Of a stretch of DNA of 64,000 bases, positions 1,206 to 64,000 are shown piece by piece (positions within the stretch are counted from its first letter, which is position 1; each line of letters begins with the position of its first letter). The notes below the pieces were generated by a model. It did no database searches. It had not been told where the DNA came from and saw only the letters and a list, made by a program, of their open reading frames with translations. The position numbers and the translations under genes are program-made. The stretch is from the NCBI GenBank assembly GCA_025611195.1, contig GCA_025611195.1_4718.2; one strand, 5' to 3'. The DNA comes from a phage.

Positions 1206-1622
1206 TTACACAGTTTTAGGAAATTCCGGCCAGTCGATATTTGGCGCAGCATCGGTATCGATAGCCGTCACCTCGTCAATGTAATCCAAAACAGCATTAA
1301 GTTGGGCTGTTTCTTCCGGAGTCAGTTTTCGCCCAGCCCGTAATTTTAACTGAATAAGATCAATGGAAGCTAGCGCAGAATCAATCAAAGATTTTTTCAT
1401 CTGTTCTGCCTCGGCGACGAGATCTTCGTGTTGCCGCTCGGGTTCCGGGGGTGCGGTAAACTCACCATTTGAGTATAACCAACCTATTCCAGGCGACACG
1501 GCTACCGTATCGCTAATGCTGACCAACTGTTGATTGTCAGATACATCGAGCTCTGCTTCGCCATCGTAAACAATCGTGTTTACTACTACCCCATTTTCAA
1601 TAACAGCGTATGATGTACTCAT
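1206..1622 (-). CDS. tfa: tail fibre assembly chaperone (lambda Tfa-like)
   Basis: C-terminal region (AEAEQMKKSL...TDAAPNIDWPEFP) resembles the lambda Tfa C-terminus (AEETKKSL...TSTAPDIEWPAVP). Start set at the ATG that overlaps the fibre stop (TAATG); the ORF-track start at 1646 is further upstream. Confidence 0.8.
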   Translation of the reverse strand: MSTSYAVIENGVVVNTIVYDGEAELDVSDNQQLVSISDTVAVSPGIGWLYSNGEFTAPPEPERQHEDLVAEAEQMKKSLIDSALASIDLIQLKLRAGRKLTPEETAQLNAVLDYIDEVTAIDTDAAPNIDWPEFPKTV

Positions 1623-4600
1623 TACATAAACTCCTCGATGATGCAAATCCCGTCAGCGCCACGCCCACCACGCATAACGGTTCCAGTGTAACCGTTATCG
1701 TAAGCGCCGCCACCGCCCGAACCTCGTGCGAGGCCGTTTGACCCACCGCCAACAGCTGCACGACCACCGCCACCCCAATATGACGCACCCCCACCACCAC
1801 ATACAGGAAATGCGCCAGCTTGACCGTCATCACCATCACCACCTGAAATGCGTATATCCCCGGTACTAGGTACACCACCGCTGCCACCGCCAGTGTTTGT
1901 GACGGTTGTTTTTCCTGCACCTTGCCCACCGGGAGCAGTCAGCAGGGATGCAAATTTACTATCCCCGCCCCTGTTTCCAGTTGTTGCCCCGGAACCGCCA
2001 GTGCCACCAGAACCAATTACAACAGAATAACTAGTAGCTGCTACCGTTATAACCGAAATTACTGTTGCCCCGGCCCCACCGCCAGCACCAAAAAACGTTT
2101 CGCTGCCGGAAAAAGCCTGACAACCGCCGCCACCGCCACCGCCGCCGGTTATCGTTACTCTAATCCGTTTTGTTCCTTGTGTTGGGGTGTACGTCCCTGA
2201 CGATGTGAAAACACGCATGTTCAGTAAACGTCCGACATATCCACTAGAATCGGCTAAACCAAGATCTTTAGCTGCTAACGTGATATTAGCTGTGCCATCG
2301 AAAGGTTTACCGTTAATCGTGCGTGCCGTCTGCAGCTTCGTGGCCGTTGCTGCGTTTCCTGATGTATTCTGGTTTCCCGCGGCGTTAACACCTGGTAGAT
2401 TGATGTTCGCACTACCGTCGAAAGACACCCCACCAATAGTGCGGGCTGTTTTCAGTTTTGTCGCCGTGGCAGCATTACCGGTCGTGTCTTGGTTACCGGT
2501 GGTGTTTACCCCAGGTAGGTTGATATTGGCTGTTCCGTTAAATGAAACACCACCAATCGTCCTTGCCGTTTGCAACTTCGTTGCGGATGCCGCATTCCCC
2601 GTGGTGTTTTGGTTACCCGTCGCATTCACGCCTGGGATGCTATCCTTAGATGTGTAGATCTGTGCCCATTCCGACCAGTTCGAGTCGGCCGCATCACGAC
2701 GTGAACGTAGGTAAGCTGGAGCGTGTGCGCCTGAGGTACCTGACCACCCAATGAGGATTTCACCTTCACCGACCGATGAAGCCCCTTTAAGATGAATGAT
2801 GTTACCATAAGCGGTGGGATATCCGTTATTGTACGCTTCATACATCTGGATGCCCGCATTGCTGCCCTGAGCCGTGTTAGCTAAGGCCGTAACACGACCT
2901 TTGGAAGCGAGAGCGTTAATACTGAAGCTAATATCCTTAGTACCGTCAAAGGCGACCCCATTAATCTTCCGTGCTGTTTGGAGTTTCGTAGCAGTAGCCG
3001 CATTACCAGAGGTACTCTGATTACCTGCTTTGTTCACGCCCGGTAAATCAATGTTGGCTGTTCCATCAAAGGACACACCCCCGATGGTTCTCGCTGTCTG
3101 GAGTTTTGTTGCTGAACCAGCGTTTCCAGAAGTGCTTTGATTACCTGCCGCGTTGACACCCGGTAGGTCAATGCTAGCAGAACCATCAAAAGAAACTCCA
3201 CCGATCGTGATCGGTGTTTTCAATTTCGTGGCTGTCGCAGCATTACCCGTCGTATTCTGATTGCCAGCAGCATTAACACCAGGTAATGCGATATCGGTCG
3301 TACCATCGAACGCAACACCACCGACTTTACGGGCGGTCTGTAGCTTGGTCGCTGTAGCCGCGTTGCCGCTGGTATTTTGCGTGCCTGCTTTATTTACGCC
3401 AGGCAAATCAATGTTCGCAGTACCATCAAAAGAAACACCCCCGATGGTTCTCGCGGTCTCAAGTTTGGTTGCGCTTCCTGCGTTTCCGCTGGTGCTTTGA
3501 TTTCCCGCTGCATCAACACCTGGTAGACTGATGCTGGCCGAACCATCGAAACTCACACCGCCGATAGTAACAGCGGTTTTCAACTTCGTCGCCGTTGCTG
3601 CGTTACCGGTTGTATTTTGATTGCCTGTCGCATTAACGCCCGGTAATACAATATCCGCTGTTCCGTCAAAGGCAACGCCACCGATTCTACGTGCAGTTTG
3701 TAGCTTGGTTGCACTAGCAGCGTTACCGCTGGTATTCTGGGTGCCAGCTTTGTTAACACCGGGGAGATCGATATTAGCAGAACCATCGAAGCTGACGCCA
3801 CCTATCGTTCTTGCAGTAGCGAGTTTAGCTGCTGTGGCTGCATTATTACCCACTTTCAGCCAATCATCCCATGGACCATCCTGGCCGTTCCATGATGCCG
3901 TTAAACTACGTACGTAAATATTGCCGGTACGTACAGTGTAACGTTGCGTTCCACCGAATTGTCCGGCAGGGAGCACTTCAAGGTAACCTGCAGCATTTGC
4001 TTCAGGGAAATTGTGGGCGACGTCCGCGTTCGTTGATACTGGTTTAGACCAAATACCCACAGACGCTTCAACCGGACCGTAAGTATTCAGATTTGCGTCG
4101 GTGGGGAGCTGTCCTCGAAAACGTTGGAATTGTGTTGCCGATAACCCCAACGTTGTTTGCATGCTTTCAATGCTGGATTGCTGTAGTAACGTTCGTGCTG
4201 TCGACGTAATCACGGCAAGCGCAACTTTATTAACGCCGGTGAAATACGGGAGTTTGTCTGCTGATGTCGCTAAACCTGAAAAGGCGGTCAGTAATGCGTT
4301 AAGGGGCTGCTTCCCAGCTAACGCATTTGTTACCGTCGTTGCGAAATTAGGATCACTTCCTATAGCTCGAGCCAGCTTATTAAGCGTATTTAGCGTCGCT
4401 GGTGATGAGTCGATCAGCGCTGCGATCGCACGCATCACAAATTCCGTGTTGGCAATCTGTTGACTGCTATTGTTAACTGCTGCGGTGGGCGCTGCTGGCG
4501 TACCAGTGAATACAGGGCTATTAAGATCCGCTTTGAGGGCGATGAGGCGTTTAAGCGCTTCGACATCAACTTTCAGGTTTTCCCATCCGATGAGAGAACC

Positions 4601-5500
4601 ACCACCGCTGGTATGATAACGGTTGTACCAGAAGTCACCGTTAACACCCAAAAAGAATATTCCCTTCTCTTCGTTTTGTGGGCCGGAACTATTTCGTGAT
4701 GCGCTGATATATTTGATTTTAATAAGGCCGTTAAACACCACTCCTGGGATTATTTCGCTGCTTCCAGCTAACTGTGATACTTGGTAAATCCCCGGGGTCG
4801 CGGCTTTAACCCACGTTAAGAATTCTGTTACTCCAGAGTTACCACTGAAATTCTTAACGTCGGTAAGTATCGCACCATAACCGAACATACCGGGCAGAGC
4901 AACTCGCCCGTTGGTACGGTCACGAATATTTGATGCGACCACAGGTAGCTGTTTACGAACGTTATTAACCGCCTTTGGTGTGGCCGATTTTGTCTCATCG
5001 TCACTATCGATGGCATTGCTCAGGATGGTCAGTCCTCGCGTAGCAGTAGTTGCATCAGGAAGAAATGCGTTATCCAACACCTTAAGCTGTATTGCACTCG
5101 TATTACTAACAACGACATGCATCTGACAGTTAAGAACGCTAGTTGCGCCTTCGGTAGGCGTAGGCTTATATCTTTCTGGCGCACTGCAGACGGCAATCAG
5201 AACACCCTTGTCGTCGTACAGACCGATCTCACGTACCCAGAACCCACCTTGACCAGCAGGAATAATACCCTCAACGACAATCCTGGTTGTACTATCGCCA
5301 TCCGCATGGATATTAGAAACTTCCCCACGATAAACTTCGTGAACAAGCGCTGTTTGGCTGGCGGTCGGGGTTGGTGTCGAGCCGTTACCATCACCAACGG
5401 CAAAGTGTGTGATTTTTAGTTTCTCACCGTCGGGAAGTAACGCAGCGGTGATACGTTCTGCTCCTTTATCGGTAACTACCGTTTTATATGCTGTACTCAT
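1622..5500 (-). CDS. tail fibre protein (P2 gpH-like N-terminus, repeat shaft, glycine-rich C-terminal tip)
   Basis: 1292 aa. N-terminus (KTVVTDKGAERITAALLPDGEKLKITHFAVGDG...GGFWVREIGLYDDKGVLIAV) matches the P2 gpH tail-collar fibre N-terminal domain. About eleven 38-aa shaft repeats (TATKLKTARTIGGVSFDGSANIDLPGVNAAGNQ). Poly-Gly C-terminal domain. Followed by Tfa. Confidence 0.9.
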   Translation of the reverse strand: MSTAYKTVVTDKGAERITAALLPDGEKLKITHFAVGDGNGSTPTPTASQTALVHEVYRGEVSNIHADGDSTTRIVVEGIIPAGQGGFWVREIGLYDDKGVLIAVCSAPERYKPTPTEGATSVLNCQMHVVVSNTSAIQLKVLDNAFLPDATTATRGLTILSNAIDSDDETKSATPKAVNNVRKQLPVVASNIRDRTNGRVALPGMFGYGAILTDVKNFSGNSGVTEFLTWVKAATPGIYQVSQLAGSSEIIPGVVFNGLIKIKYISASRNSSGPQNEEKGIFFLGVNGDFWYNRYHTSGGGSLIGWENLKVDVEALKRLIALKADLNSPVFTGTPAAPTAAVNNSSQQIANTEFVMRAIAALIDSSPATLNTLNKLARAIGSDPNFATTVTNALAGKQPLNALLTAFSGLATSADKLPYFTGVNKVALAVITSTARTLLQQSSIESMQTTLGLSATQFQRFRGQLPTDANLNTYGPVEASVGIWSKPVSTNADVAHNFPEANAAGYLEVLPAGQFGGTQRYTVRTGNIYVRSLTASWNGQDGPWDDWLKVGNNAATAAKLATARTIGGVSFDGSANIDLPGVNKAGTQNTSGNAASATKLQTARRIGGVAFDGTADIVLPGVNATGNQNTTGNAATATKLKTAVTIGGVSFDGSASISLPGVDAAGNQSTSGNAGSATKLETARTIGGVSFDGTANIDLPGVNKAGTQNTSGNAATATKLQTARKVGGVAFDGTTDIALPGVNAAGNQNTTGNAATATKLKTPITIGGVSFDGSASIDLPGVNAAGNQSTSGNAGSATKLQTARTIGGVSFDGTANIDLPGVNKAGNQSTSGNAATATKLQTARKINGVAFDGTKDISFSINALASKGRVTALANTAQGSNAGIQMYEAYNNGYPTAYGNIIHLKGASSVGEGEILIGWSGTSGAHAPAYLRSRRDAADSNWSEWAQIYTSKDSIPGVNATGNQNTTGNAASATKLQTARTIGGVSFNGTANINLPGVNTTGNQDTTGNAATATKLKTARTIGGVSFDGSANINLPGVNAAGNQNTSGNAATATKLQTARTINGKPFDGTANITLAAKDLGLADSSGYVGRLLNMRVFTSSGTYTPTQGTKRIRVTITGGGGGGGGCQAFSGSETFFGAGGGAGATVISVITVAATSYSVVIGSGGTGGSGATTGNRGGDSKFASLLTAPGGQGAGKTTVTNTGGGSGGVPSTGDIRISGGDGDDGQAGAFPVCGGGGASYWGGGGRAAVGGGSNGLARGSGGGGAYDNGYTGTVMRGGRGADGICIIEEFM
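2290..2640 (-). repeat. intragenic tandem repeat block, about 3 x 114 bp (fibre shaft repeats)
   Basis: Imperfect 114-bp units within the fibre gene, each encoding a ...TARTIGGVSFDG..NI.LPGVN..GNQ.T.GNAA... unit. Confidence 0.8.
2925..3840 (-). repeat. intragenic tandem repeat block, about 8 x 114 bp with 342-bp higher-order periodicity
   Basis: Same 114-bp unit as 2290..2640. Three unit subtypes (K-, R- and V-type) recur in order, giving a 342-bp supra-repeat. Separated from the other block by a roughly 260-bp non-repeat insert. Confidence 0.8.
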
Positions 5501-6036: not shown

Positions 6037-6125
6037 ATGTGCACCCTCCTCCAACATAACCAGATTAAATATATATTTCTTAAACGTGGGACACGATTCG
6101 AGATAAACGTAAACGGCCTTAACGA

Positions 6126-6181
6126 CCGCATAAAATTCCGCGCATATTACCCCTCTATCCCGACAAAGCGAGATAGAGGGG
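6126..6181 (-). promoter_or_regulatory. intergenic stem-loop (CCCCTCTATC/GATAGAGGGG, 12-nt loop) followed on the minus strand by TTTTATGCGG
   Basis: Perfect 10-bp inverted repeat at 6150..6181 between the stop of 6194..7948 and the start of 5509..6036; TTTTATGCGG at 6126..6135 in minus orientation. Confidence 0.5.
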
Positions 6182-6193
6182 AGGATAATACGA

Positions 6194-12429: not shown

Positions 12430-12488
12430 GCTGACCTCATAGATGATCGTTGATAGGAAAGAGACCTAATTCATACCATGGGAACCTC

Positions 12489-12543
12489 AAAAAAAAAAAA
12501 CAAAAATAGGAAAACGGTGCTCATCCTTTTAGGGATGAGCACC
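12489..12543 (-). terminator. rho-independent terminator (minus strand)
   Basis: Perfect 11-bp stem GGTGCTCATCC / GGATGAGCACC with 6-nt loop, followed on the minus strand by a long U-tract (plus-strand A-run at 12489..12514). Sits downstream of 12565..13143. Confidence 0.8.
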
Positions 12544-12564
12544 GCGTACCGTTATATCGAATGA

Positions 12565-16960: not shown

Positions 16961-17278
16961 TTAGTTTGCACTTAAGAAATGACCCAGAACCGTTACGATT
17001 GGAAACAGTCCCGTAACCGTATTATCGCCCGAAAACATCATCTTTGAGTCGTTAACGGTGATGAAACGGATGTCGGTTGCGGATCCGTCGATAGCGACAA
17101 AACGCATCGAGTTTGGTGGAAGATCCTCAACAACTTCCACGAGGTGTTCACGATTTTCAAAGGCTTCTTTAACACGACGCATGAAACGAATCAATGTTCC
17201 TTCAGCGTCGGCTTCCAAATGACCTAAGATATCGCGATTATTGCGAATAGCGAATACAGTCATTTTAAACATACACAT
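16961..17278 (-). CDS. hypothetical protein
   Basis: 105-aa ORF with AAGAGGA before ATG; preceded by the TATATTAC-containing element. Confidence 0.5.
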   Translation of the reverse strand: MCMFKMTVFAIRNNRDILGHLEADAEGTLIRFMRRVKEAFENREHLVEVVEDLPPNSMRFVAIDGSATDIRFITVNDSKMMFSGDNTVTGLFPIVTVLGHFLSAN

Positions 17279-17319: not shown

Positions 17320-17368
17320 GGTGAAGCTGATTACTGCATTGCTTCACCTAGGTAATATAGCCGTGAAA
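17320..17368 (-). promoter_or_regulatory. candidate early-type promoter: TTTCACGGCTATATTAC followed by 8-bp stem-loop
   Basis: Minus strand reads TTTCACGGCTATATTAC (plus 17352..17368), then hairpin GGTGAAGC...GCTTCACC (17320..17348), about 73 nt upstream of ATG 17278. The same 17-mer recurs at 45952..45968 and, as a variant, at 63985..64000. Confidence 0.5.
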
Positions 17369-17386
17369 ATTAATGCGTTAATTCAT

Positions 17387-27292: not shown

Positions 27293-27339
27293 GTTGTCGT
27301 TTCCTCCATACGAAACCAAAAAATTGTCAAAATGTACAT

Positions 27340-27379
27340 CGGCATAACACCCGTGTCCGCCCGCGATGGGAGGGACACG
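27340..27379 (-). promoter_or_regulatory. stem-loop CGTGTCC/GGACACG followed on the minus strand by GTTATGCCG
   Basis: Inverted repeat 27352..27379 after the stop of 27400..28008; TTATGCCG at 27340..27348 (minus) upstream of the 27008..27292 start. Confidence 0.45.
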
Positions 27380-27399
27380 AGCAATACGCTTTTATTTCT

Positions 27400-37729: not shown

Positions 37730-37742
37730 GTTAACCTCAATA

Positions 37743-37783
37743 CGAACATAACCCTCCTCCGACCCATCAGGGAAGGAGGAGGG
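37743..37783 (-). promoter_or_regulatory. stem-loop CCCTCCTCC/GGAGGAGGG (14-nt loop) followed on the minus strand by TTATGTTCG
   Basis: 9-bp stem 37752..37783 after the stop of 37793..38107; the plus strand carries AATATGCTG on the other side. Confidence 0.5.
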
Positions 37784-37792
37784 AATATGCTG

Positions 37793-44095: not shown

Positions 44096-44114
44096 AGCAG
44101 GTACCGGTAACGCG

Positions 44115-44139
44115 GCATAAACCCTCCCCGAAGGGAGGG
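44115..44139 (-). promoter_or_regulatory. stem-loop CCCTCCC-CGAA-GGGAGGG followed on the minus strand by TTTATGCCG
   Basis: 7-bp stem 44122..44139 after the stop of 44150..44707; TTTATGC at 44115..44121 (minus). Confidence 0.55.
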
Positions 44140-44149
44140 CGGTTAATGA

Positions 44150-44707
44150 TTACTCCATCCATACTTCTTCGTCGTAATGATTTTCTATCGCATTACGCCA
44201 AAAACGTACGGTGTCCAAACTAATCGGTGCGTAAAAATGTTGGTCAACGCCTACATTAAGTCCGTTGGCCTTCGCTAACATACAGCGATGAATATGCCCG
44301 AATAGATTGAAGTAGCCCGGGTTTCTTTCGCTGGGTTTATGGCATAGCCAGTAGGATTCGTCATTGCTAATCGGCAATACCAACGGATGTTCATAAACAG
44401 CAGCAAACCCCATACCGAGCAGTTTATCACGCCACGCGTCGAAGCTTAATCCTGTCGCTTTGTATGCGTCTTCGTCCCAATTCCCCATTACCAATTGAAC
44501 CTGGATATCAGAACGAATGGCTTCCACGAACTCGAACTTACCCCAATCACCTAAATGCCACAACACACTGTTCTTTGGAAGATTGTTGATGGCTTTCAGC
44601 ATATGTTGGTTCATATCGGCGACGCTTGCGAACGGACGGCGTGAATACGTCCATGTACGCTCGCTATCGAAATGGGTATCCGATGTAAAGAAGATGGGTG
44701 GGGTCAT
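44150..44707 (-). CDS. calcineurin-like metallophosphoesterase
   Basis: Motifs SDTHF (D-x-H), LGDWG (GD), GNWDED (GNHD/E-like) and GHIHR (GH-x-H) in canonical order. Confidence 0.75.
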   Translation of the reverse strand: MTPPIFFTSDTHFDSERTWTYSRRPFASVADMNQHMLKAINNLPKNSVLWHLGDWGKFEFVEAIRSDIQVQLVMGNWDEDAYKATGLSFDAWRDKLLGMGFAAVYEHPLVLPISNDESYWLCHKPSERNPGYFNLFGHIHRCMLAKANGLNVGVDQHFYAPISLDTVRFWRNAIENHYDEEVWME

Positions 44708-45186
44708 TGATCTAATTGCTCCAGAAATGCGCGACCCGATTTACTTGCTTTTAAATGCTGTTCTGCGGAAGTAAGCAGAAGATCGGTTGGTGTGAATGCA
44801 GCGCTACCTTTCCACGCCGTTTTCAGTTTACCCTTTTCGATACTGAACTGAATCAGTTGTTGGGTACCGAAGTTAAGCGTGTTCGTCGCGGCGCTAAATA
44901 CACCACCCATCATGCTGTAACCAAAGACTTTCACATTTTCCGTGTAGAAGTCATTGTCGATCAATTTGTTCTGGAGCTCGAGTTGATCGGACGGCAGCAA
45001 TCCCCCATCAAAGACACTTAAAATACCAGCCAGGCGATACATACTCACCTTCCCTGCAACGCCCACCACGTAATTGCCATACACGGTTTCTTCCAGTTTA
45101 GCAACAACGGTGCGATCGTCGGAGGTTTTCATCGAAACCTCAATACCATCACCAACTTCTGTCAACGTTAAATCAACGATACTCAT
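44704..45186 (-). CDS. hypothetical protein
   Basis: 160-aa ORF; ATGA overlap with the phosphoesterase gene. Confidence 0.5.
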   Translation of the reverse strand: MSIVDLTLTEVGDGIEVSMKTSDDRTVVAKLEETVYGNYVVGVAGKVSMYRLAGILSVFDGGLLPSDQLELQNKLIDNDFYTENVKVFGYSMMGGVFSAATNTLNFGTQQLIQFSIEKGKLKTAWKGSAAFTPTDLLLTSAEQHLKASKSGRAFLEQLDQ

Positions 45187-45208: not shown

Positions 45209-45895
45209 TTAACACATGATTTCACCATGTTTCTTTTCAACATACGTATAAACATCATCCAAATAAGCAATGAGTTTATCCCGATTTGCACAAAGCGATT
45301 TAATCACCGCAATCTCTTTCATATAAAGCTGCTGACCTAACGCCGGATAAGTAATCCAAGCATAGCCGTCAGGCGCAAATTTAGAAATAAGATAATCGGC
45401 GGTTTCCTGTAGTGCGAACTCTTTACTCATCTGACCGTAACGATGTTCGATTGCACGGATACCAAAACGTTCGCTATCCAGACGACCCATATCCGCCAAA
45501 CGAAGCACCTGAGAAGCAACCGAGCTACGTGGACCGGAGTATGAGGCGCGGTGTTCAGCAATAAGTACACGTATCTCCTCGATGTCTTCTGGTGTGAAAA
45601 TATGTTGCTCGTTACGAAGCAGGATAACCGATGCACGAATACCTCCGATAAGGTGGTGGTACGTTCTGTTTTCGTGGCATGCAATATCATGCATAAAAGC
45701 GGCAGTTAATAGACGACGACGTTCCGTGGGTCTGATGATGCCAACCACATCGGCAAGTTCATTTGCCAATTCGACAACAGCAAGCACGTGTTCTTCTTGA
45801 TGAGCAAGATCATTTTTACGAATATTATCAATTACTTCAGTGCGTGTTTCCTGAGATAAGAAATTTAGACAATCCAACGAATATAAAGATTTCAT
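45209..45895 (-). CDS. HD-domain phosphohydrolase
   Basis: H...HD...D pattern (HVLAV ... AAFMHDIA ... D). AAAGAGG before ATG. Preceded by the TATATTAC element. Confidence 0.6.
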   Translation of the reverse strand: MKSLYSLDCLNFLSQETRTEVIDNIRKNDLAHQEEHVLAVVELANELADVVGIIRPTERRRLLTAAFMHDIACHENRTYHHLIGGIRASVILLRNEQHIFTPEDIEEIRVLIAEHRASYSGPRSSVASQVLRLADMGRLDSERFGIRAIEHRYGQMSKEFALQETADYLISKFAPDGYAWITYPALGQQLYMKEIAVIKSLCANRDKLIAYLDDVYTYVEKKHGEIMC

Positions 45896-45944
45896 CGCAC
45901 GTACCTCTTTGAATCGGTAGATAGATTAATAGATATTGATTACT

Positions 45945-45968
45945 CACGTAAGTAATATAGCCGTGAAA
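45945..45968 (-). promoter_or_regulatory. candidate early-type promoter: TTTCACGGCTATATTAC (second copy)
   Basis: Exact 17-mer shared with 17352..17368, minus orientation, about 56 nt upstream of ATG 45895, followed by the imperfect palindrome TTACGTGAGTAA. Lies in the divergent intergenic region 45896..46111. Confidence 0.5.
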
Positions 45969-46048
45969 GGATTTGTGTTGGTCCGTTTCGATGCCCATCG
46001 TATTTTATGGATTGTCGAATGACGTCATTTTTAAGGGACATCCCCGAC

Positions 46049-46088
46049 CTCCTCCCCACACCTTTCCTGGGGAGGAGTTTTATCATAC
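46049..46088 (+). promoter_or_regulatory. stem-loop CTCCTCCCC/GGGGAGGAG followed by TTTTATCATAC, upstream of plus-strand helicase gene
   Basis: 9-bp stem at 46049..46077, then TTTTATCATAC at 46078..46088, 24 nt before ATG 46112. The same TTTTATCATAC occurs at 54712..54722. Confidence 0.45.
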
Positions 46089-46111
46089 TTTCTATTAATT
46101 CGAGCGCGATT

Positions 46112-49744: not shown

Positions 49745-49762
49745 AAAAAATAGTTAGCATAT

Positions 49763-49795
49763 CTTCCTCCCTACCCATAACGGGCGGGGAGGAAG
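49763..49795. terminator. bidirectional stem-loop at convergent gene junction
   Basis: CTTCCTCCC / GGGAGGAAG 9-bp stem with 15-nt loop between the plus gene (stop 49744, then an A-run) and the minus gene (stop 49813). Flanked by AGCATAT and TTTATG. Confidence 0.6.
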
Positions 49796-49812
49796 GTTTA
49801 TGTGGCTATGAC

Positions 49813-51110: not shown

Positions 51111-52685
51111 TTACAATTCAAAATCTTCATCGATAACGCGCTGGGTAAGCACTTTGTCGCTGAAGAACTCCACCTTGCGCTGATGGTATTTACGATGCGC
51201 TTCGATAGAAGTACATACCAGATACCAGAAGGTTGGCGTCATTCCTTCAAACTTCCCTTTCAGCTGACGCAGTCGCCCCAACACCTGAATGTTACCGGTT
51301 CGTGACCCCATCGCTAACGTCATGAACGCCATCACCAAGTCAGGAAGGTCGATACCCGTACCTGCCGATTTCACCGTCGTAACGCTAATATCGTTATCCA
51401 ACAAGACCATGAAATCTTCTTCAGCCGTATAAGGACCGATCTCTAACTCAGGAATACGTTCACTAAGGTAATGCGACAACGACTTACACATATCGACGGT
51501 TGCACAATACACCAGCATCTTCATACCTTCCTGATACTGGTTCATGAAACCTTTGATGATAACCGTATAGATGAAGTTAAAATACGCGAGTTTGAGTTGC
51601 TTGTTCTTCATGATAGACTGTTCGAATATCGTGTGAGAATAAGAACCCCCAAACCCTTTATATCTGACTTTATCTGTACTGCGTAGTCGATACGTCACGG
51701 CATTTACCGCAATGTATTTCTTGTATTCGCCTTTCGCATAACGGGCTTCTTTCGGATACATCAAATACAACATCCGCTCGATGAACGGATCATCGGACAC
51801 CGCCGTTGCTGACAGATAGATGATTTCCGGAATACTAGCGTAACACTTGACCTTAAACAAGAAATGCAATGCTTCATGGCACTCGTCATGAATCAGAAGG
51901 CCTATGCCGGTCTTTTCCCAAAACTCAGCGGGATGGAAGGCATATGGCGCAACGCAGTTATTCTTCTCGTAGTCCGCAATATAACGTTGGAACATGTTCA
52001 AGGAGAACAATGCGATTTTGAAGTCGAGTTCGCCTTGTTCAACCAAGGTTTGAAACTCCAACATACTGTAACGAGGAATGTCAGGATGCGGTGGATCCTC
52101 CTTAGCGTTCCCGCGTATCTCGATAACATCCCCTGGTTCCATCCCGAAGAAGTTCAGTAGTGAGCTTCGCCAACCTGGCATGTATCTCGGCGACAGAATG
52201 ATACCCGTCCGCACACCGCGTCGGAAGGTAATCTCCTGCGACATGGCCGTTTTTCCCGACCCCGTTTGAGCGGTGTTTAGGCTCATTCTGAAGGGGGTAT
52301 CCTTACCCCCGTCCATGTACTCCAACCATTCTTGCTGATCTTCACGCCATGGGAACTTCCATTTCTTTACGAACTCCACTTCTTTACCTGGTGCCGGATC
52401 GTGGTAAACGATTTCCAACCACTCTTTTCGTATCCCTCGGGAAAAGATAAAATCCAAAAACGATTTCAACTGTTCGCGGAGTAAGTATACCTCACTATAA
52501 TCGCTTCTTGCCGCGGCATACGTGTTTATGGTATCGGTAACCATTCTCCGTGTACGAGGGTCGCGCCGTTTCCTCAGATGCAAACAACGGTCTCGAAGGT
52601 AATGGCCGATAAGATGGGCAAATCGAAGTCCGTATCCGCTCAGCCTCATGCCGTGCGAGAAGACATCGATACGAGCTAACTTCAT
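51111..52685 (-). CDS. SF2 DExH-box helicase
   Basis: Motif I QTGSGKT, motif II LLIHDECH, motif III YLSATAV, motif VI-like QVLGRLRQ. ATGA overlap with the upstream gene. Confidence 0.75.
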   Translation of the reverse strand: MKLARIDVFSHGMRLSGYGLRFAHLIGHYLRDRCLHLRKRRDPRTRRMVTDTINTYAAARSDYSEVYLLREQLKSFLDFIFSRGIRKEWLEIVYHDPAPGKEVEFVKKWKFPWREDQQEWLEYMDGGKDTPFRMSLNTAQTGSGKTAMSQEITFRRGVRTGIILSPRYMPGWRSSLLNFFGMEPGDVIEIRGNAKEDPPHPDIPRYSMLEFQTLVEQGELDFKIALFSLNMFQRYIADYEKNNCVAPYAFHPAEFWEKTGIGLLIHDECHEALHFLFKVKCYASIPEIIYLSATAVSDDPFIERMLYLMYPKEARYAKGEYKKYIAVNAVTYRLRSTDKVRYKGFGGSYSHTIFEQSIMKNKQLKLAYFNFIYTVIIKGFMNQYQEGMKMLVYCATVDMCKSLSHYLSERIPELEIGPYTAEEDFMVLLDNDISVTTVKSAGTGIDLPDLVMAFMTLAMGSRTGNIQVLGRLRQLKGKFEGMTPTFWYLVCTSIEAHRKYHQRKVEFFSDKVLTQRVIDEDFEL

Positions 52686-54688
52686 AACGTGAATACATCC
52701 TCCGGTTTAGGTTCTTTGCGCGGTAAAAGCATGTAGTCGATCGGATGATCCGGCTTCATGGTTGGGATATAACTGTTCGGGTTTTGGAACGCATCCAGTT
52801 GCTCTTGGTGAGCGAACTTCATACTCAAGGAGCGCATGTTCATGTTCTTCTTGAAGGTGCTGAAGTATCGTGTTGTTCCCTGTTTCGGCATGCGATAATC
52901 TTTCGTGTGTGGCGAACGAATCATGCTGGCGTAGAGAATAACATCGAGATGCGAAAGGTTCATTCGCAGACGCTGTGCGCACAAGCGATGCCAATAGTAC
53001 AGCACGTTTGCAACTTCTTCCGGTGTTGCTTCGTCTTCCGAGAGGAACCCGGCACTGAAAGAACCTTTCCCGAATTTGAACTCACGTTCGATTTCTTTTG
53101 CGTATTCCATCATGTTTTTGTGGATTAACGGCATCTGGAATAACGTACGTGAATTGTCCCAATGTTTCAAGTCGAAAATCACAATCCCGTCAGACGTCAC
53201 TTCCCAGCTATGGCGTTTAAGATAACGGATAAACGCTTTACTCGGTACAACAGGACGTCCGCAGAAATCGAAATTGACTTTGAGCTTACGATAGCTTTCA
53301 TCTTTCCTGTCGTAAATCTCCATATCGCAAAGCGTCATGTTAAACAGACGCTGTGGTATCAGCGAACTGATTTCTTCCGCTTCGGCTACATCGTACAACA
53401 TGTTCGCAAGACCTAACTTCATCTTAATCAGCACGTGTTTACCTTTCAGCTCACGTGCGAGTTTGATGTCGTTCATGTTCTGGCTGTAACGAAGGATATG
53501 TTGATATTCCGGTGGGATTGGTGCTGTAGAGACCGTTGACGAACCGTCGTGGTGTTTGGTAGAAAGAATGTTCTGCGTTACCTGTTGCGAGCAGGTACGC
53601 GCTGCGCCATCGCCGACATTATCGGTTAATGCGAAGTTATGACTTAATTCACCATAACACGTTGTGCATACCCCAGCAGGATCGGGATGATGACAATAGT
53701 TAACGGAGCGCATACGCACTGTGGTGCCGATCAATTCTTTCATATGTGGTTGTATCGCTACCAACGAACCGTCATCACGAATAATGAATCGGCCGTGGAA
53801 GCCACGCAGGTCGGTCTCATCACGGATTGGCATCGGGATGGTCTCTCTACTACCACAATCACCAGGATGTAGTCGTTGCACAACCGCTGTCGCTATCTGA
53901 AGTTCACGACCGAAATATTCAGACTTTTTAATCTGCTCTTTGTTGAACAGCAACGATTTCGCCGCAGAACGACTTTCTTTCAAGCTGTCGGGAAGAGAGA
54001 TCAAACCTGACGCGTACGACCGCATTACTGGATCACGGAATATCTCGGAGTTAATATCGGTCAAGAATCCACGCATCCCAATACACTGCAGCACCTGCCC
54101 AATCGAAACGTGTTCGGTTCTTACCGCACGTGCAATAGGGTTTGCATGTAATGTTTTATCGGTGCTCAGTACCTTTGTCAGTTTCTTGTATGCGCTTTCG
54201 ATACCTTCGCGGGTGGGTTCCGCTTCAGCGATGATTTTCTTAACTTCGGGGTGTACGGTAATCTGATAAAAATCATCCGCACAAATAGTTGTTACGTATT
54301 CCTCCAACGCATACGTAAAGAAGTTATACACGTTGTTAAACATATCGAACAGTGCTTTCCAGAGAACCTCACGATTCTCTTGTGGGTAAGCATACATGCA
54401 TTGACGATACGCTGCGCTTTGCAACGCTACCGATGAACCCGCTGTAAACTTACGTTTATCAACCAGGTTCTCTTTTGTCAATGGTGTCTCAGGATACATG
54501 CGATGTACAGACCAGTGCATGTAACTAAAGAAAATGCGTCGCGCACGTAATTCATGAACGCCATCGTCCATCTCGATATATACACGGTCATTAGGCTGTG
54601 CCCACTCGAATACCTCATCAACCGGCCAGTGCATAAGCTCGCGTGCCCTCACACGACGTTTCGTGGTGGTCGTCTGTGTTGTAGTCAT
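52682..54688 (-). CDS. RNA polymerase beta'-like subunit, C-terminal fragment (multisubunit phage RNAP)
   Basis: Colinear similarity to bacterial beta' region F through the trigger loop: CIGMRGFLTDINSEIF (beta' AGMRGLMAKPDGSIIE), bridge-helix-like SRSAAKSLL, VRMRSVNYCHHPDPAGVCTTCYGEL (beta' [22 protein letters not shown]). No NADFDGD motif, so the N-terminal part is encoded elsewhere. Confidence 0.7.
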   Translation of the reverse strand: MTTTQTTTTKRRVRARELMHWPVDEVFEWAQPNDRVYIEMDDGVHELRARRIFFSYMHWSVHRMYPETPLTKENLVDKRKFTAGSSVALQSAAYRQCMYAYPQENREVLWKALFDMFNNVYNFFTYALEEYVTTICADDFYQITVHPEVKKIIAEAEPTREGIESAYKKLTKVLSTDKTLHANPIARAVRTEHVSIGQVLQCIGMRGFLTDINSEIFRDPVMRSYASGLISLPDSLKESRSAAKSLLFNKEQIKKSEYFGRELQIATAVVQRLHPGDCGSRETIPMPIRDETDLRGFHGRFIIRDDGSLVAIQPHMKELIGTTVRMRSVNYCHHPDPAGVCTTCYGELSHNFALTDNVGDGAARTCSQQVTQNILSTKHHDGSSTVSTAPIPPEYQHILRYSQNMNDIKLARELKGKHVLIKMKLGLANMLYDVAEAEEISSLIPQRLFNMTLCDMEIYDRKDESYRKLKVNFDFCGRPVVPSKAFIRYLKRHSWEVTSDGIVIFDLKHWDNSRTLFQMPLIHKNMMEYAKEIEREFKFGKGSFSAGFLSEDEATPEEVANVLYYWHRLCAQRLRMNLSHLDVILYASMIRSPHTKDYRMPKQGTTRYFSTFKKNMNMRSLSMKFAHQEQLDAFQNPNSYIPTMKPDHPIDYMLLPRKEPKPEDVFTL

Positions 54689-54809
54689 TATTGCTTTCCG
54701 ATTTAAATGGTTTTATCATACGGTTTACCAAATCCGTTGGACTTTACTATCGTTGTGATAGCATCGGGAATCCCTTCCCTTAGGTTATGTAGGTGTTAAT
54801 ATATCTCCA

Positions 54810-54831
54810 CTGCTGTCGTAAAGGTCAGCAG
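54810..54831 (-). promoter_or_regulatory. stem-loop CTGCTG/CAGCAG just after the stop of 54834..55319
   Basis: 6-bp stem with 10-nt loop. On the minus strand it is followed by GGAGATATATTAACACC, a TATATTA-containing variant. Confidence 0.35.
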
Positions 54832-54833
54832 CA

Positions 54834-55319
54834 TTATCCAGCTTCCTGTTGTATAGCGTATGGATCCATAGCGTCTGACATATTCGCAAAAACGGTGAGA
54901 ATAAACCCCTTTATCTGTCTCACCTCGGTTACACGAAGCCCTTTATCATTACGGTATACGTTTTCTTCACCAACCAACTTCGGCCTGATAGCATAAACCC
55001 CATCAACAAACGGGAATGTCGGATACGGATAAATACCGATACGAATGATGTTTGGATGATCGCCTAGAAGGTCACGCCCAAATGTATCTACTCTACCGTA
55101 AACCGTTCCATCCACACCCTCCACTTCAATGAGATCATTTCGAATATCCTGAAATAGCTGCTCTAATGTGTCGGCGGGGTACGTATATGCGACACCTAAC
55201 GCTGGGTCCTCAATGGTTTTGACACTGAATCCGTTAAGCCAAACAATCTGTTCATCCGCCCATGTTTCTTCATATACCGTTAATCCATCGCCGTATATGT
55301 TGGCGCGTGCTATCTCCAT
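54834..55319 (-). CDS. hypothetical protein
   Basis: 161-aa ORF with AAGAGGAAA before ATG. Confidence 0.5.
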   Translation of the reverse strand: MEIARANIYGDGLTVYEETWADEQIVWLNGFSVKTIEDPALGVAYTYPADTLEQLFQDIRNDLIEVEGVDGTVYGRVDTFGRDLLGDHPNIIRIGIYPYPTFPFVDGVYAIRPKLVGEENVYRNDKGLRVTEVRQIKGFILTVFANMSDAMDPYAIQQEAG

Positions 55320-55433
55320 AATCTCATTTCCTCTTATACGTTCGGATAGATGACATGTTGGATATACGTTGCCTTTGCATATATTGCTTTATTTCCGTCA
55401 GAAATAACGGAAAATAAAAACAACGACATAGTT

Positions 55434-55463
55434 CCCTCCCACCTCCACATGGGAGAGGGAGGG
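55434..55463 (-). promoter_or_regulatory. stem-loop CCCTCCC/GGGAGGG (16-nt loop) after the stop of 55477..55842
   Basis: 7-bp stem; a second hairpin TTTCCGT...ACGGAAA lies at 55391..55412. Confidence 0.5.
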
Positions 55464-55476
55464 CTATTCGTGTTTA

Positions 55477-55842
55477 TTACTCTATGCTGTCTTCTTCAAC
55501 ACAATCCTCTTCGGAACCGTCGAACGTTTTCTGCACCGCAGTGGTATCCCAGTTGGCAGCGTAATCAGCCATCGCTTCGCGCAACGCTTCTTCACCAGCA
55601 TCGCCAGCCAGATCAAGCACAACCAAACCTTGCGCGACGTTTTGAGCGACAGTATCAATAACGGTTGCATCTTCTTCAAAACTACGTACCGGTTCAATGG
55701 TGCCTACATCAACAGCATAGTTCGTGGTCGCTGTAAGCACGGCGACTTGTAGTGCATCGCTATTATCATCATCATGCAGTGCTGCTTCAATACCGATTGG
55801 ACGGGCCAGTTCTTGCAGTGTTAATTTGCGAATTAAGTTCAT
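55477..55842 (-). CDS. small acidic protein (acidic trio A)
   Basis: Shares LTLQELAR with the 55866..56216 product and VLDL.G with the 56335..56748 product. Confidence 0.5.
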   Translation of the reverse strand: MNLIRKLTLQELARPIGIEAALHDDDNSDALQVAVLTATTNYAVDVGTIEPVRSFEEDATVIDTVAQNVAQGLVVLDLAGDAGEEALREAMADYAANWDTTAVQKTFDGSEEDCVEEDSIE

Positions 55843-55865
55843 TATGTTTTTTCCTCAGGTGAATG

Positions 55866-56216
55866 TTAGCAATCGTTTAAAACTTTTTCGATACGATGGT
55901 TGACGAGTTCATTGAACGACTCTTCAACTTGTTCGATAATTTCATCAACGTCGATATCTAATTGTTGGGGTTGGATAACATGCTCTTTCATGGTTTCTAA
56001 CCAGTATTCGGCTTTAACCATAACGTTAGCTACTTGTTCGACCTGGCTGCGTATGTCGACGATCTGGCAGTCAGGATTTTTAATATCGATGATGTGTCCG
56101 TGCTGATTGATAAAGCCTAGTTTATTCGACGCCTTTACCGCATCGCGGGCAAGTTCTTGCAAGATTAAATTATTTACGTAGTTCACTGCTACGGAACGAT
56201 TTTCTTTATCACTCAT
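55866..56216 (-). CDS. small acidic protein (acidic trio B)
   Basis: Start moved to ATG 56216 (AAGAGGA upstream); the ORF-track N-terminal extension runs through the stem-loop. Confidence 0.5.
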   Translation of the reverse strand: MSDKENRSVAVNYVNNLILQELARDAVKASNKLGFINQHGHIIDIKNPDCQIVDIRSQVEQVANVMVKAEYWLETMKEHVIQPQQLDIDVDEIIEQVEESFNELVNHRIEKVLNDC

Positions 56217-56284
56217 ACCAGGGATCCTCTTTAAGTCTTCACATTCTAGTGTTAAGCAGTTAAAATAAACCGTCCCTTTAATCA

Positions 56285-56323
56285 GCATAAACATCCTCCT
56301 CCTACCATGCGGGCAGGAGGAGG
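56285..56323 (-). promoter_or_regulatory. stem-loop CCTCCTCCT/AGGAGGAGG followed on the minus strand by TTTATGCTG
   Basis: 9-bp stem 56295..56323 after the stop of 56335..56748; TTTATGC at 56285..56291 (minus), about 70 nt upstream of ATG 56216. Confidence 0.55.
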
Positions 56324-56334
56324 CGTAATATGCA

Positions 56335-56748
56335 TCAGAAAGGTGTGCGATTCTTATATTCGAATAATGTCTGAAGGACACATCGTGTTAACGAGTTTTG
56401 TAATTCGATACGTCCTTGTTCTCCGAACAGATCCAACACCATCATCCCTTTTGCTGTTTTCTCTGCCACTTCTTCACAAATCTGTAAATTGTACATGTCG
56501 TCATTGCCGAGTTCCTTTCGACCGATCGAACTGACACGCATCAACTCACCTTTACTATCGCGAACATCGGAGAATGCATCATAGACCGCATCGATGTTCG
56601 CAGAACGCGTCAAACCCTCCGCTTCGCGCCACTCTCGATATGTACCATCAAGCGTTTGTTCCTCGCCCGAGGTTGTTGATTCGCTGTTGGTGGTTGGGCG
56701 AATTAAATGGGGTGTTATCATCGCGATCACGCTGTCGTAATGGTCCAT
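56335..56748 (-). CDS. small acidic protein (acidic trio C)
   Basis: 137-aa ORF immediately downstream of the beta-like gene. Confidence 0.5.
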   Translation of the reverse strand: MDHYDSVIAMITPHLIRPTTNSESTTSGEEQTLDGTYREWREAEGLTRSANIDAVYDAFSDVRDSKGELMRVSSIGRKELGNDDMYNLQICEEVAEKTAKGMMVLDLFGEQGRIELQNSLTRCVLQTLFEYKNRTPF

Positions 56749-56759
56749 CGTTTACCTCG

Positions 56760-58928
56760 TTAGCTTTCGCAGTCATCTGCGTCGATGATTTGTCCGCCAG
56801 CAACGTTCAGTTGATGATACAGAATCCTCAACGCACGGTTGCCACCAATGGGATACTTCTCGAAGTTGGTCGCAATAGGAATCGCTGACGGCTTATCGGT
56901 CGCATAGATGCTTTCAGTGATGCTATCCACCTGTTTTGGATTGTTCGCATAGTCCATAAAGACGCTCGCAAACCATCCGCCAGCGAAGGCGGTAACTTCG
57001 CGATGTTCAGATTCGCCACAGTAACGAGTCGGTTGCTCTTTACCGGGAGAACTGTATTTATCGCTATTACTGAGTTTCGACGGTAATCCATGCGCTTGCA
57101 ATTTAGGGATACCCACAGCCGACCAATCGTTCGCCGTCTTCTCCAACATCATGATGTACGTGTCACCGATCGCAATATCGTTCTTGGTTGTCCGCCACTG
57201 TCCAGAACGCCCGCGGTACCGTACAGGACCTTTCTTCAACGGGAACTCACGAATCAGATTCTCCATACGTTCTGAACCTGCTGCGATACTGTCCGTCGGG
57301 ATATAAACTTCCGTACCGTGGCGCTGTACGTACCGTAAATGATCCCATTTATCCTCATTCGTGATACAGTATTTTTCAACAACCTGTTCCACGAACTCAG
57401 GACTGACGATATAGTAATAGCGCATCAGTGTGTTCCAGGCGGTCTCCAGATCGCCTGCATCCATCACTGGTTTCAGTTCACGCATGATCTGATCACCAAC
57501 GCCGTTGATGTATGGCGCATTAACACGACTTAAACTCATCCTTTTAATTACCGTGCTATCGTCAAACATAAAGTCCGCAACGTTACCCCATTGGTCAACC
57601 GGCATTTCATCGTCTTCCATGATGTCGGTTACGACGAATTTATCGCCTGCCATACCGGTGAATTTAAACCCGATGCCTGGAACAACGTCATACGTGTATG
57701 TGATGGTCACACGCCAATCATCAAGATTCTCTTTACGGTAATCGCGGGTCGGTAACACATGGCGTAGCTGTCCGTTAGGATTGCGGATATCAATACCGTG
57801 TTCAGCGTCAGCCAGGTTCAACCACCACATCACCGTTTGATGATGACGTATCGGCGTACCAACGCGTTCACGTTCGTACTTACGAACAGCATCCTGAATT
57901 CGGGTGTAAAGCAAACCGATTGCGTTCTCGTATTTCAGGAATTGACGATACGGAGGACGCATCTTCTCTTCCATCATAATCGCGCGCTCGCGGGCTTGAC
58001 GTCCAGAACGACGATGTCGATCGCTGACAACATCGATATCCGTTACACGCGCATTCGGTTCAGCGTAAGTGAGATCATCGTAAACATAATCCACACGCTG
58101 AAGATTACACGTCATCATGTCAACAACGCTGAGGATAGGATCTATTTCGCGTGTTGCTGCAAGTAACCCATCCTTACGAATACGCTCACCGTTCTCGGGT
58201 ATCGCTTGATATACCTCATCATCGCCGTAGAGATTAATTGGATATCGTGATTTACCTGATGTGATCGTTCGCTTCTCAATGCCGGTACTGGTGAAATGCT
58301 TCAATACACCACGACGGGCAACGCCACCATCTTCAATACACTGGTAGAAGCTACCGAAACACACCTTGCAATCGCGACCGTAACCCCACTCACGTGTTTC
58401 TTGATTGATCGCTGGGCTTTCCATCAAACGAGAATATCGCGGTACGATCTGGCCTCGACGAAGGGAATGGAACAAGTTGGTTGGTCGAAAACGGAAACCG
58501 TACTGCTGATGCATGATGTGATGCTCAGGCACTTCAAGCAAGCGTAGCTCGTGACGGTTACCATCCTCTTGGTTTTCGTACAGCACGTAATGCATCGTGT
58601 TTGTTTTGATGCTGTTTGCTGTATGTCCTGGTTGAAACCGTGGAATGATATCTATGATGCGAGATTCAACTGGAAACTCTACTGACCAAGTGTTCTGTCC
58701 GTACTGGTATTCAATCCCCGTCGTTAGTCGGGACGGCTTCGCATCTTTGATAACCAACGCTTGGCTAAGATGTCCACCAAACATCGCAGCGCGCTGTGCT
58801 GAGTTATAATGCAATAGCCCGTTAAGTCCAGTCCCTACGCCAGTATACTCCTGTTTAATGGGAATGATTTTACCTTCAGCGATTGCCTGCTTCACAGATT
58901 CATAAAGAGGTTTTTCTTTATAATGCAT
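56760..58928 (-). CDS. RNA polymerase beta-like subunit, C-terminal fragment (multisubunit phage RNAP)
   Basis: Colinear matches to the beta catalytic region: GMAGDKFVV (beta GDKMAGRHGNKG), EDDEMPVDQWGNVAD...KRMSLSR (beta EDMPYDENGTPVD...SRMNIGQ), IGDTYIMMLEKTANDW (beta GYMYMLKLNHLVDDKMHA), GESEHREVTAFAGG (beta GEMEVWALEAYGAA). Start moved to ATG 58928 (AGGAAG upstream). Confidence 0.65.
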   Translation of the reverse strand: MHYKEKPLYESVKQAIAEGKIIPIKQEYTGVGTGLNGLLHYNSAQRAAMFGGHLSQALVIKDAKPSRLTTGIEYQYGQNTWSVEFPVESRIIDIIPRFQPGHTANSIKTNTMHYVLYENQEDGNRHELRLLEVPEHHIMHQQYGFRFRPTNLFHSLRRGQIVPRYSRLMESPAINQETREWGYGRDCKVCFGSFYQCIEDGGVARRGVLKHFTSTGIEKRTITSGKSRYPINLYGDDEVYQAIPENGERIRKDGLLAATREIDPILSVVDMMTCNLQRVDYVYDDLTYAEPNARVTDIDVVSDRHRRSGRQARERAIMMEEKMRPPYRQFLKYENAIGLLYTRIQDAVRKYERERVGTPIRHHQTVMWWLNLADAEHGIDIRNPNGQLRHVLPTRDYRKENLDDWRVTITYTYDVVPGIGFKFTGMAGDKFVVTDIMEDDEMPVDQWGNVADFMFDDSTVIKRMSLSRVNAPYINGVGDQIMRELKPVMDAGDLETAWNTLMRYYYIVSPEFVEQVVEKYCITNEDKWDHLRYVQRHGTEVYIPTDSIAAGSERMENLIREFPLKKGPVRYRGRSGQWRTTKNDIAIGDTYIMMLEKTANDWSAVGIPKLQAHGLPSKLSNSDKYSSPGKEQPTRYCGESEHREVTAFAGGWFASVFMDYANNPKQVDSITESIYATDKPSAIPIATNFEKYPIGGNRALRILYHQLNVAGGQIIDADDCES

Positions 58929-58959
58929 AGGACTTCCTATTATCGAATTGAGGTACGTC

Positions 58960-59313: not shown

Positions 59314-59318
59314 GATAA

Positions 59319-59358
59319 CCCTCCCACAGCGTAAAGCGTAGGGAGGGCATTTATGCCG
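59319..59358. terminator. stem-loop CCCTCCC/GGGAGGG at convergent junction, followed on the plus strand by ATTTATGCCG
   Basis: 7-bp stem 59319..59347 with 15-nt loop between the plus gene stop (59313) and the minus gene stop (59379). Confidence 0.5.
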
Positions 59359-60708: not shown

Positions 60709-60714
60709 TATGGA

Positions 60715-63962: not shown

Positions 63963-64000
63963 CTCTATGACTTTGTTCATAGAGGTAATATAAGCGTGAA
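63963..64000 (-). promoter_or_regulatory. candidate early-type promoter variant: TTCACGCTTATATTAC next to 8-bp stem-loop (truncated by window end)
   Basis: Minus strand reads ...TTCACGCTTATATTAC (plus 63985..64000) then hairpin CTCTATGA...TCATAGAG (63963..63984), about 96 nt upstream of ATG 63889. Same layout as 17320..17368. Confidence 0.4.

Follow-up and report, generated by a model that had tools for sequence, protein, structure and literature searches.

Upstream of three minus-strand genes in a stretch of phage DNA, analyzed here at its full length of 64,000 nucleotides and referred to below as the window, lies a short sequence that recurs almost unchanged, and this raises the question of whether these sites are promoters and, if so, which RNA polymerase (RNAP) reads them. 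A sequence-only reading of the window had proposed them as early-promoter candidates on the strength of a match to the phiKZ-type consensus. We conclude that the three sites are very probably early promoters of the phiKZ type, used by the virion RNAP of a Goslar-like phage of the Chimalliviridae. With 92-94% identity, Escherichia phage vB_EcoM_Goslar (MK327938; Chimalliviridae, a nucleus-forming jumbo phage) is a close relative of the window, which corresponds approximately to the 96-161 kb region of that genome.

A scan of the window finds the exact 17-mer TTTCACGGCTATATTAC twice in minus orientation, at 17352-17368 and 45952-45968, the two sites for which identity had been claimed, and the close variant reported at 63985..64000 is likewise present there as a third minus-strand copy, TTCACGCTTATATTAC, which differs from TTTCACGGCTATATTAC by two mismatches and is interrupted by the window end. 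With up to three mismatches allowed, 0.16 matches to TTTCACGGCTATATTAC are expected, and two or more were reached in only one of 100 shuffles. The first two copies were also recovered by a repeat finder (family D9) as a shared stretch of 25 nt (17344-17368 versus 45944-45968) with 92% identity and a conserved GA at its end. The octamer TATATTAC at the heart of the motif occurs only three times in the window, each time on the minus strand and in an intergenic region, and this count is at chance level (3 versus 2.4 expected). Measured from the end of the octamer, the ATG lies 73, 56 and 95 nt away at sites 1, 2 and 3, in agreement with the spacing of 55-95 nt to minus-strand start codons given in the earlier reading, and all three downstream ORFs (16961-17278, 45209-45895 and 62303-63889) are preceded by an AGAGG Shine-Dalgarno sequence. 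The coordinates of the sites and of the features around them are collected in Table 1.

Table 1. Candidate promoters, predicted starts, associated genes and repeats of the window, with the sequences upstream of chmA in six phages
Feature	Position	Strand	Sequence or description
Candidate early promoter P1 (site 1)	17344..17381	-	TTAACGCATTAATTTTCACGGC-TATATTAC-CTAGGTGA; octamer 17359-17352
Predicted P1 start	17345	-	G 7 nt past octamer; implied 5' UTR 67 nt
First gene after P1	16961..17278	-	105 aa; Goslar gp105 ortholog
Site 1 inverted repeat	17320..17348	-	perfect 8 bp, GGTGAAGC-13 nt-GCTTCACC (17348-17341 / 17327-17320)
Candidate early promoter P2 (site 2)	45944..45981	-	CCAACACAAATCCTTTCACGGC-TATATTAC-TTACGTGA; octamer 45959-45952
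Predicted P2 start	45945	-	G; implied 5' UTR 50 nt
First gene after P2	45209..45895	-	HD-domain phosphohydrolase (PF01966 and Goslar annotation)
Second ORF of P2 unit	44704-45186		small ORF
Metallophosphoesterase of P2 unit	44150-44707		PF12850 and Goslar annotation
G+C hairpin, then TTTATG	44096-44149		after the P2 metallophosphoesterase gene
Candidate early promoter P3 (site 3)	63977..64000	-	TTCACGCT-TATATTAC-CTCTATGA; octamer 63992-63985; upstream part beyond window
Predicted P3 start	63978	-	G; implied 5' UTR 89 nt
First gene after P3	62303..63889	-	phiKZ gp068 homolog (fifth, sigma-like non-virion RNAP subunit)
Site 3 inverted repeat	63985-63977 / 63970-63962	-	perfect 9 bp, CCTCTATGA/TCATAGAGG
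38-nt segment	63947..63984	-	adjoins P3 octamer; hairpin CCTCTATGA/TCATAGAGG and GCGACATAAATGTTAC
Weak variant site	54776..54803	-	TATATTAACACC-TACATAAC-CTAAGGGA; TACATAAC-CTAAGG-G
chmA upstream, Goslar			TTGAAAAAAATTTCAGGGTTATATTACCTAGGTGA
chmA upstream, phiKZ			ATGAAAAAAATTTGAGATTTATATTACTAAATTGA
chmA upstream, Erwinia RAY			TTCAAAAAAATTACAAGTCTATATTACGTATGTGT
chmA upstream, Salmonella SA002			TTCAAATTTTTTACACCCCTATATTACCTAGGTGT
chmA upstream, Klebsiella Eowyn			...ACGTATATTACTTAGGTGA
chmA upstream, PhiPA3			TTGAAAAAAATCTCACATCTATATCACAGGTGTG

For the genome-wide test we turned to Goslar, the closest relative, and used its complete genome. There too, the number of TATATTAC octamers is at chance level (10 versus 7.7 expected), and over-representation was accordingly given no weight as evidence in either sequence. 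All ten copies are on the minus strand, home of approximately 80% of the genes, and according to the GenBank annotation eight of them are intergenic, with two copies inside genes; given that 6.9% of the Goslar sequence is non-coding, the probability of at least eight of ten being intergenic is approximately 2e-8. The intergenic octamers precede the minus-strand genes gp004, gp105, gp159, gp175, gp182, gp189, gp221 and gp236. A weight matrix built from the Goslar TATATTAC sites and scanned over both strands (2 x 237 kb) yields a bimodal score distribution, in which 13 sites score between 21.9 and 40.7, the next one scores 16.7 and no others reach 9. Five of these extended sites were added by the scan and have the core TACATTAC (15067, 43266, 49732, 86705 and 187639). 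Each of the 13 shares the orientation of the gene that follows and lies 25-205 nt upstream of it, which is the outcome of the search with orientation and start distance that the sequence-only reading had called for, and 12 are intergenic in the GenBank annotation, the thirteenth being inside a 62-aa hypothetical ORF. The motif, with eight of its ten exact copies and 12 of the 13 extended ones between genes, thus does not lie mostly in coding sequence, which was the outcome that the sequence-only reading had named as speaking against promoters. Taken together, the 13 Goslar sites and those of the window define a 38-nt consensus, TAAT.CAA.A..TTTCAcGgc-TA[T/C]ATTAC-YT...tGA, in which a G stands 7 nt past the octamer at 16 of the 16 sites. 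On the 38-nt matrix, P1 scores 49.4, the highest score among shuffles being 14.5, and P2 scores 44.2. What departs from chance is where the octamer sits, on which strand and in which 38-nt context, and not how often it occurs.

All three window sites are kept at orthologous positions in Goslar (113797, 142800 and 160791, with predicted starts at 113783, 142786 and 160777) and in UViG_3300011560_000001 (UViG_3300011560 in what follows), the nearest IMG/VR contig carrying the motif, which is 93-96% identical to the window; none is identical. The orthologs at Goslar 160791 and in UViG_3300011560 supply the upstream part of P3 that is missing from the window, ccggaatccaaaatta. Between approximately -22 and the start codon of site 1, there are six differences among the window, Goslar and UViG_3300011560, four of which fall in the loop of a hairpin (discussed below) whose stem is unchanged; variation is greater at the end of the preceding coding sequence. 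P2 is invariant in both relatives, with an 8-nt indel in the 5' UTR just downstream. Such a pattern is as expected of a functional element, though relatives this similar do not allow strong footprinting. The remaining matches in an IMG/VR scan with a 16-mer are in unrelated chance or sigma-70-like contexts.

The early (virion-RNAP) promoters of phiKZ were reportedly described by Ceyssens et al. in 2014, and later work on them includes Wicke et al. 2020 and Putzeys et al. 2024 (PMC10914365). A direct scan of the phiKZ genome finds 42 TATATTAC octamers, 33 of them on the plus strand, and approximately 25 share an extended context, TTTAAACAG or TTTRAGATY-TATATTAC-N5-tG, before genes that include gp054 (chimallin), gp068 and gp260. 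These extended sites are consistent with the 28-32 published phiKZ early promoters and with the starts of PHIKZ054, which has an early-motif primary transcription start site (TSS) and a middle secondary start, and of PHIKZ260, which has a primary TSS (Wicke et al. 2020, PMC8244752). The published early core of phiKZ is TATATTAC (PMC7058600, Table 2), so that the core named in the sequence-only reading is borne out both by the literature and by the genome scan. The same table lists the motifs TTAWTAVAA_HYWTTTRARR_BTATATTACDWHDGTG for 201phi2-1 and TBYAWWWWWTTTCARRYAKATATTATYWAAGTGWA for N1M2 (PMC7058600, Table 2), and a comparison of our sites with the published consensus sequences of phiKZ, 201phi2-1 and N1M2 aligns them almost position for position. 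Every RNAP-encoding jumbo phage has a conserved A/T-rich motif of approximately 10 nt near -10 before its early operons, which has turned out to be the early-promoter consensus wherever it was tested (PMC7598289), and conservation at -10, -20 and -30 has also been reported (PMC11512511). Early transcription of phiKZ and AR9 needs neither the host RNAP nor protein synthesis (PMC7598289); recognition by the virion RNAP was inferred for the phiKZ group from insensitivity to rifampicin and chloramphenicol, none of the virion RNAPs having been purified as of 2017 (PMC5312081).

The published starts also guided the placement of +1. The AR9 early consensus is AAATATATATTAT-(6N)-G+1, i.e. ...TATATTAT-(6N)-G+1, and phiKZ and phiR1-37 start 6 nt downstream of their consensus (PMC5312081). 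Because of this 6-nt rule, +1 was put at the invariant G of each window site; the layout of core, N6 and G+1, with the G present at all 16 sites, agrees with the AR9, phiKZ and phiR1-37 rule, and the starts are thereby predicted from sequence.

Could the sites instead be middle or late promoters of the non-virion RNAP, or be read by both phage polymerases? Genes with both early and late promoters exist in AR9 (PMC7598289), and PHIKZ054 with its early primary and middle secondary start offers a comparable case (PMC8244752). This reading fails, however, because the published middle and late motifs of phiKZ differ from the one seen here, the former being a weak A/T-rich or TACT motif near -22 to -24 and the latter T-3ATG+1, whereas the window motif equals the early consensus position for position, and we regard it as very unlikely. 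Still less likely, in our estimate, is that the sites are host sigma-70 promoters, at which E. coli RNAP would use TATATT as the -10 hexamer for the first phage genes. TATATT does match TATAAT at five of six positions, and site 1 offers TTAACG-16-TATATT (9 of 12 positions), but the match at site 1 is at chance level (1 found versus 1.1 expected) and site 2 has no match of any kind. Moreover, a -35 hexamer would lie at 16-18 nt, which the conserved upstream blocks (TTTCACGGC; TTGAAA, spaced by 13 nt) do not provide, and the invariant final AC of the octamer, the YT and the G at 7 nt are features foreign to sigma-70 promoters that typify the host-RNAP-independent early motifs of phiKZ, 201phi2-1, N1M2 and AR9. 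The sigma-70 reading was rejected on account of the missing match at site 2, the chance-level match at site 1 and the wrong spacing of the upstream blocks.

The reading as virion-RNAP early promoters can be followed further at the gene for the nuclear-shell protein chimallin (chmA), which is gp189 in Goslar. The element TTGAAAAAAATTT...TATATTAC(N5)TG lies before chmA in Goslar, phiKZ, RAY and SA002 and, partially, in Eowyn, and PhiPA3 has TATATCAC (Table 1), so that the same element is found ahead of chmA in six genera. Since the proteins of the phages compared share only approximately 22-25% identity, this putative promoter is far better conserved than the genes that it would drive. The early promoter sites come in two upstream sub-classes, in phiKZ (TTCAAACATATTTAAACAG/AAAAAAANTTTRAGATY) as well as in Goslar (CCAACATTTTTCACGRC/TTGAAAAAAATTTCAGGGT); the chmA promoter is of the A-tract type in most genera examined, and the TTCACG type is the one present at all three sites of the window. 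The sub-classes might reflect differences in strength or timing. As regards expression, all five subunits of the virion RNAP are present in Goslar virions by mass spectrometry; the virion RNAP genes lie outside the window, and the packaging is known from Goslar, 92-94% identical. In the RNA-seq data of Armbruster et al., expression at 5 min post infection is seen for 175 of 249 Goslar genes, and the same data served to map the chmA start. The sequence in the published figure starts 91 nt before the ATG of Goslar chmA and the motif lies 80-73 nt before it, which is consistent with the motif being the promoter but is not decisive.

Each site had also been described as being followed immediately by a short stem-loop that would sit at the 5' end of the transcript. 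This is only partly borne out. It is clear at site 1, where an RNA beginning at 17345 would open with a 5-bp stem from +1 (GAAGC/GCUUC), which is part of a longer inverted repeat (Table 1). At site 2, there is only a marginal 6-bp A+T-rich repeat (ATTACT/AGTAAT), which overlaps the octamer. At site 3, the perfect repeat spans the predicted start, and the hairpin would be absent from the RNA because seven of the nine bases of its 5' arm lie upstream of that start; the transcript is predicted to form a different hairpin at +10 to +39. Across the class, a perfect stem of at least 5 bp starts at +1 or +2 at 4 of 14 sites against a background of 4% (P ~0.002, with a metric chosen post hoc); the sites with a stem from the predicted +1 are site 1 and three in Goslar (49732, 86705 and 166069). 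A scan of stem starts over the class shows no peak at +1 and a loose cluster from -7 to +4. Folding energy near the start is marginally below background in the Goslar-like phages (P = 0.03-0.09), the early leaders of phiKZ have a folding energy above background, i.e. they are less structured, and an Rfam search of the whole window returned no known RNA family. A class-wide 5' hairpin was therefore not counted as part of the promoter, there being no peak at +1, a weak folding signal in Goslar-like phages and none in phiKZ. The hairpins at sites 1 and 3 are real, and they are gene-specific leader or DNA features that do not define the promoter. Stem-loops of the ompA type in the 5' UTR are known to stabilize E. 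coli mRNAs, a stem at the 5' end hindering decay that depends on the 5' end. Site 1 and Goslar 49732, 86705 and 166069 resemble them in that the stem begins at the predicted +1, and the class differs from them in that the hairpin is missing at some sites and that at site 3 most of its 5' arm comes before the predicted start.

The 38-nt segment that adjoins the P3 octamer and harbors the site 3 hairpin is found in the window and in UViG_3300011560, and the Goslar ortholog at 160791 is without it. The segment is bounded by a TTACCT direct repeat, and a module of the same layout, a hairpin and GCGACGTATAACGTTACC, accompanies the Goslar promoter at 226695. It could be a degenerate tandem copy of the promoter or a portable leader module. 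It is conceivable, but on balance unlikely, that the perfect inverted repeats which straddle the initiation site, or begin there, at a subset of early promoters in Goslar-like phages, including this module, form a distinct, portable regulatory layer. If so, the layer could protect or otherwise handle the 5' ends of mRNAs in the early infection vesicle or, alternatively, act at the DNA level as a structure by which initiation of the virion RNAP is modulated, and either role would exceed that of an incidental, gene-specific leader structure. The least probable reading of the sites, namely that they are no promoters at all and serve as an operator for a protein or as a site of recombination or homing, or are the relic of a segmental duplication, can point to the perfect inverted repeats overlapping sites 1 and 3 and to the TTACCT-flanked indel as a sign that recombination acted at site 3, and is contradicted by the co-orientation with genes, the fixed distance to the conserved G and the conservation before chmA across genera, by repeats that differ in sequence between sites and are therefore not a common operator, and by a similarity that ends at the motif of approximately 38 nt with unrelated flanks and is therefore not a duplication.

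Starting from what is observed, namely the motif with its bias of strand and location, its conservation and its identity to the phiKZ-type consensus, we infer the start positions, the timing and the reading polymerase of the three early promoters as follows. The injected virion RNAP would recognize an extended element of approximately 35 bp, consisting of the A/T-rich block TAAT.CAA.A near -30, TTTCAcGgc near -20, the near-invariant octamer TA[T/C]ATTAC near -10 and the initiation region YT...tGA. Initiation would take place at the conserved G that stands 7 nt past the octamer (17345, 45945 and 63978, all on the minus strand). Firing would take place within minutes of injection, in need of neither the host RNAP nor new protein synthesis. 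The first unit would comprise a string of small genes from gp105 onward; P1 heads a run of small ORFs that have no family match in Pfam, its first gene (16961-17278) included. The second would deliver the HD-phosphohydrolase and the metallophosphoesterase. The assignment of 45209..45895 as an HD hydrolase, made earlier from the letters and their translation, is upheld by a match to PF01966 with E = 6e-8. Site 2 is situated within a divergent intergenic region (window 45896-46110), and the plus-strand helicase ORF opposite to it can be opened at 46007, the Goslar start being annotated approximately 100 nt further in; at Goslar 142891-142915, ahead of the annotated helicase start, the hairpin CTCCTCCCC...GGGGAGGAG is annotated as a plus-strand terminator.

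The third unit would be the non-virion RNAP block, beginning with the gp068-like subunit, and site 3 would act as the switch for this second polymerase, which would then assume middle and late transcription. The product of 62303-63889 matches phiKZ 58082-59578 with a tblastn E-value of 2e-31, its KTN4 homolog, found by tblastn against a phage collection, is annotated as 'non-virion DNA-dependent RNA polymerase subunit', and the gene order of phiKZ gp068-gp075, with a helicase and the RNAP beta-like genes among them, is retained in window 51111-63889. In phiKZ, a TATATTAC promoter is present at 57984, 41 nt upstream of gp068. Given the shared gp068 homolog, the colinear block and phiKZ's own TATATTAC promoter, site 3 is the positional ortholog of the phiKZ gp068 promoter and heads the non-virion RNAP gene block. 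Within this block, a further intergenic and co-oriented site at 54776-54803, identical at Goslar 151634, lies upstream of an RNAP beta-like ORF (52682-54688, the phiKZ gp074 homolog). Its core weight-matrix score of 16.7 exceeds the maximum of 14.6 in 30 shuffles, and it is possibly a weak variant of the promoter, much weaker than the three main sites.

Other features of the window concern the ends of transcription units. At least seven G+C-rich hairpins of the form CCCTCCC...GGGAGGG, in minus-strand reading, occupy gaps between genes and are followed by TATG, mostly as TTATG (gaps at, for example, 497-657, 6058-6193, 27320-27399, 37730-37792, 44096-44149, 49745-49812, 55320-55476 and 59094-59378, the last with TTATC after its hairpin). 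They resemble the phiKZ terminator motif ...GGGRRGGBYTTATKYYGT (PMC10914365) and also hold the phiKZ late-promoter core TATG, so that they may serve both as terminators and as late promoters. A different style of terminator is seen at 12430-12564 on the minus strand, a canonical intrinsic one with GGTGCTCATCC-loop-GGATGAGCACC, a T run and then a run of 12 T's, which is distinct from the CCCTCCC/TTATG hairpins of the window. Tandem repeats with a period of 120 nt are present at 2283-3830, inside an ORF of 1292 aa (1622-5500, minus strand) that corresponds to Goslar gp090, a 'tail fiber repeat protein', and comprise seven copies of a 300-nt reference that are 62-73% identical.

Promoters of this type have been described in phiKZ, and the sites do not represent a new kind of element. 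Our literature search found no published promoter consensus for Goslar, and the sites provide a map of candidate early transcription units for Goslar-type coliphages, a main E. coli model of the phage nucleus. They also show that the putative virion-RNAP promoter has been kept almost base for base between phages with strongly diverged proteins, and they offer compact, phage-specific promoter sequences for engineering, reporters and annotation.

Among known systems, phiKZ is the closest. It shares with the window the identical core TATATTAC, a T-G approximately 6-7 nt downstream and blocks near -20 and -30, and its sites, like those of the window and Goslar, are intergenic, co-oriented with genes and present before chmA and the gp068 homolog. 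The -20 block is TTTCACGGC at the three window sites versus TTTAAACAG or TTTRAGATY in phiKZ, Goslar unlike phiKZ accepts the core TACATTAC (5 of its 13 sites), the flanks are richer in G+C at Goslar-like sites than in phiKZ, and the starts are mapped in phiKZ whereas those of the window are predicted from sequence. The number of sites also differs (13-14 in Goslar versus 28-32 in phiKZ), which reflects either long transcripts or a further promoter type in Goslar. The motif of 201phi2-1 and that of N1M2, W5-TTTCARRYAKATATTATYWAAGTGWA, align almost base-by-base with the Goslar sequences TTAATCCAACATTTTTCACGGCTATATTACTTACGTGA and TTGAAAAAAATTTCAGGGTTATATTACCTAGGTGA, while the cores of N1M2, OBP and EL end in TTAT and not in TTAC as here, these motifs being mostly bioinformatic predictions (PMC7058600; PMC11512511). 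AR9, which differs from the window phage in its uracil-containing DNA, nevertheless has the same general layout of an A/T-rich core, 6 nt and a G start, and its reader is likewise an injected multisubunit RNAP (PMC5312081).
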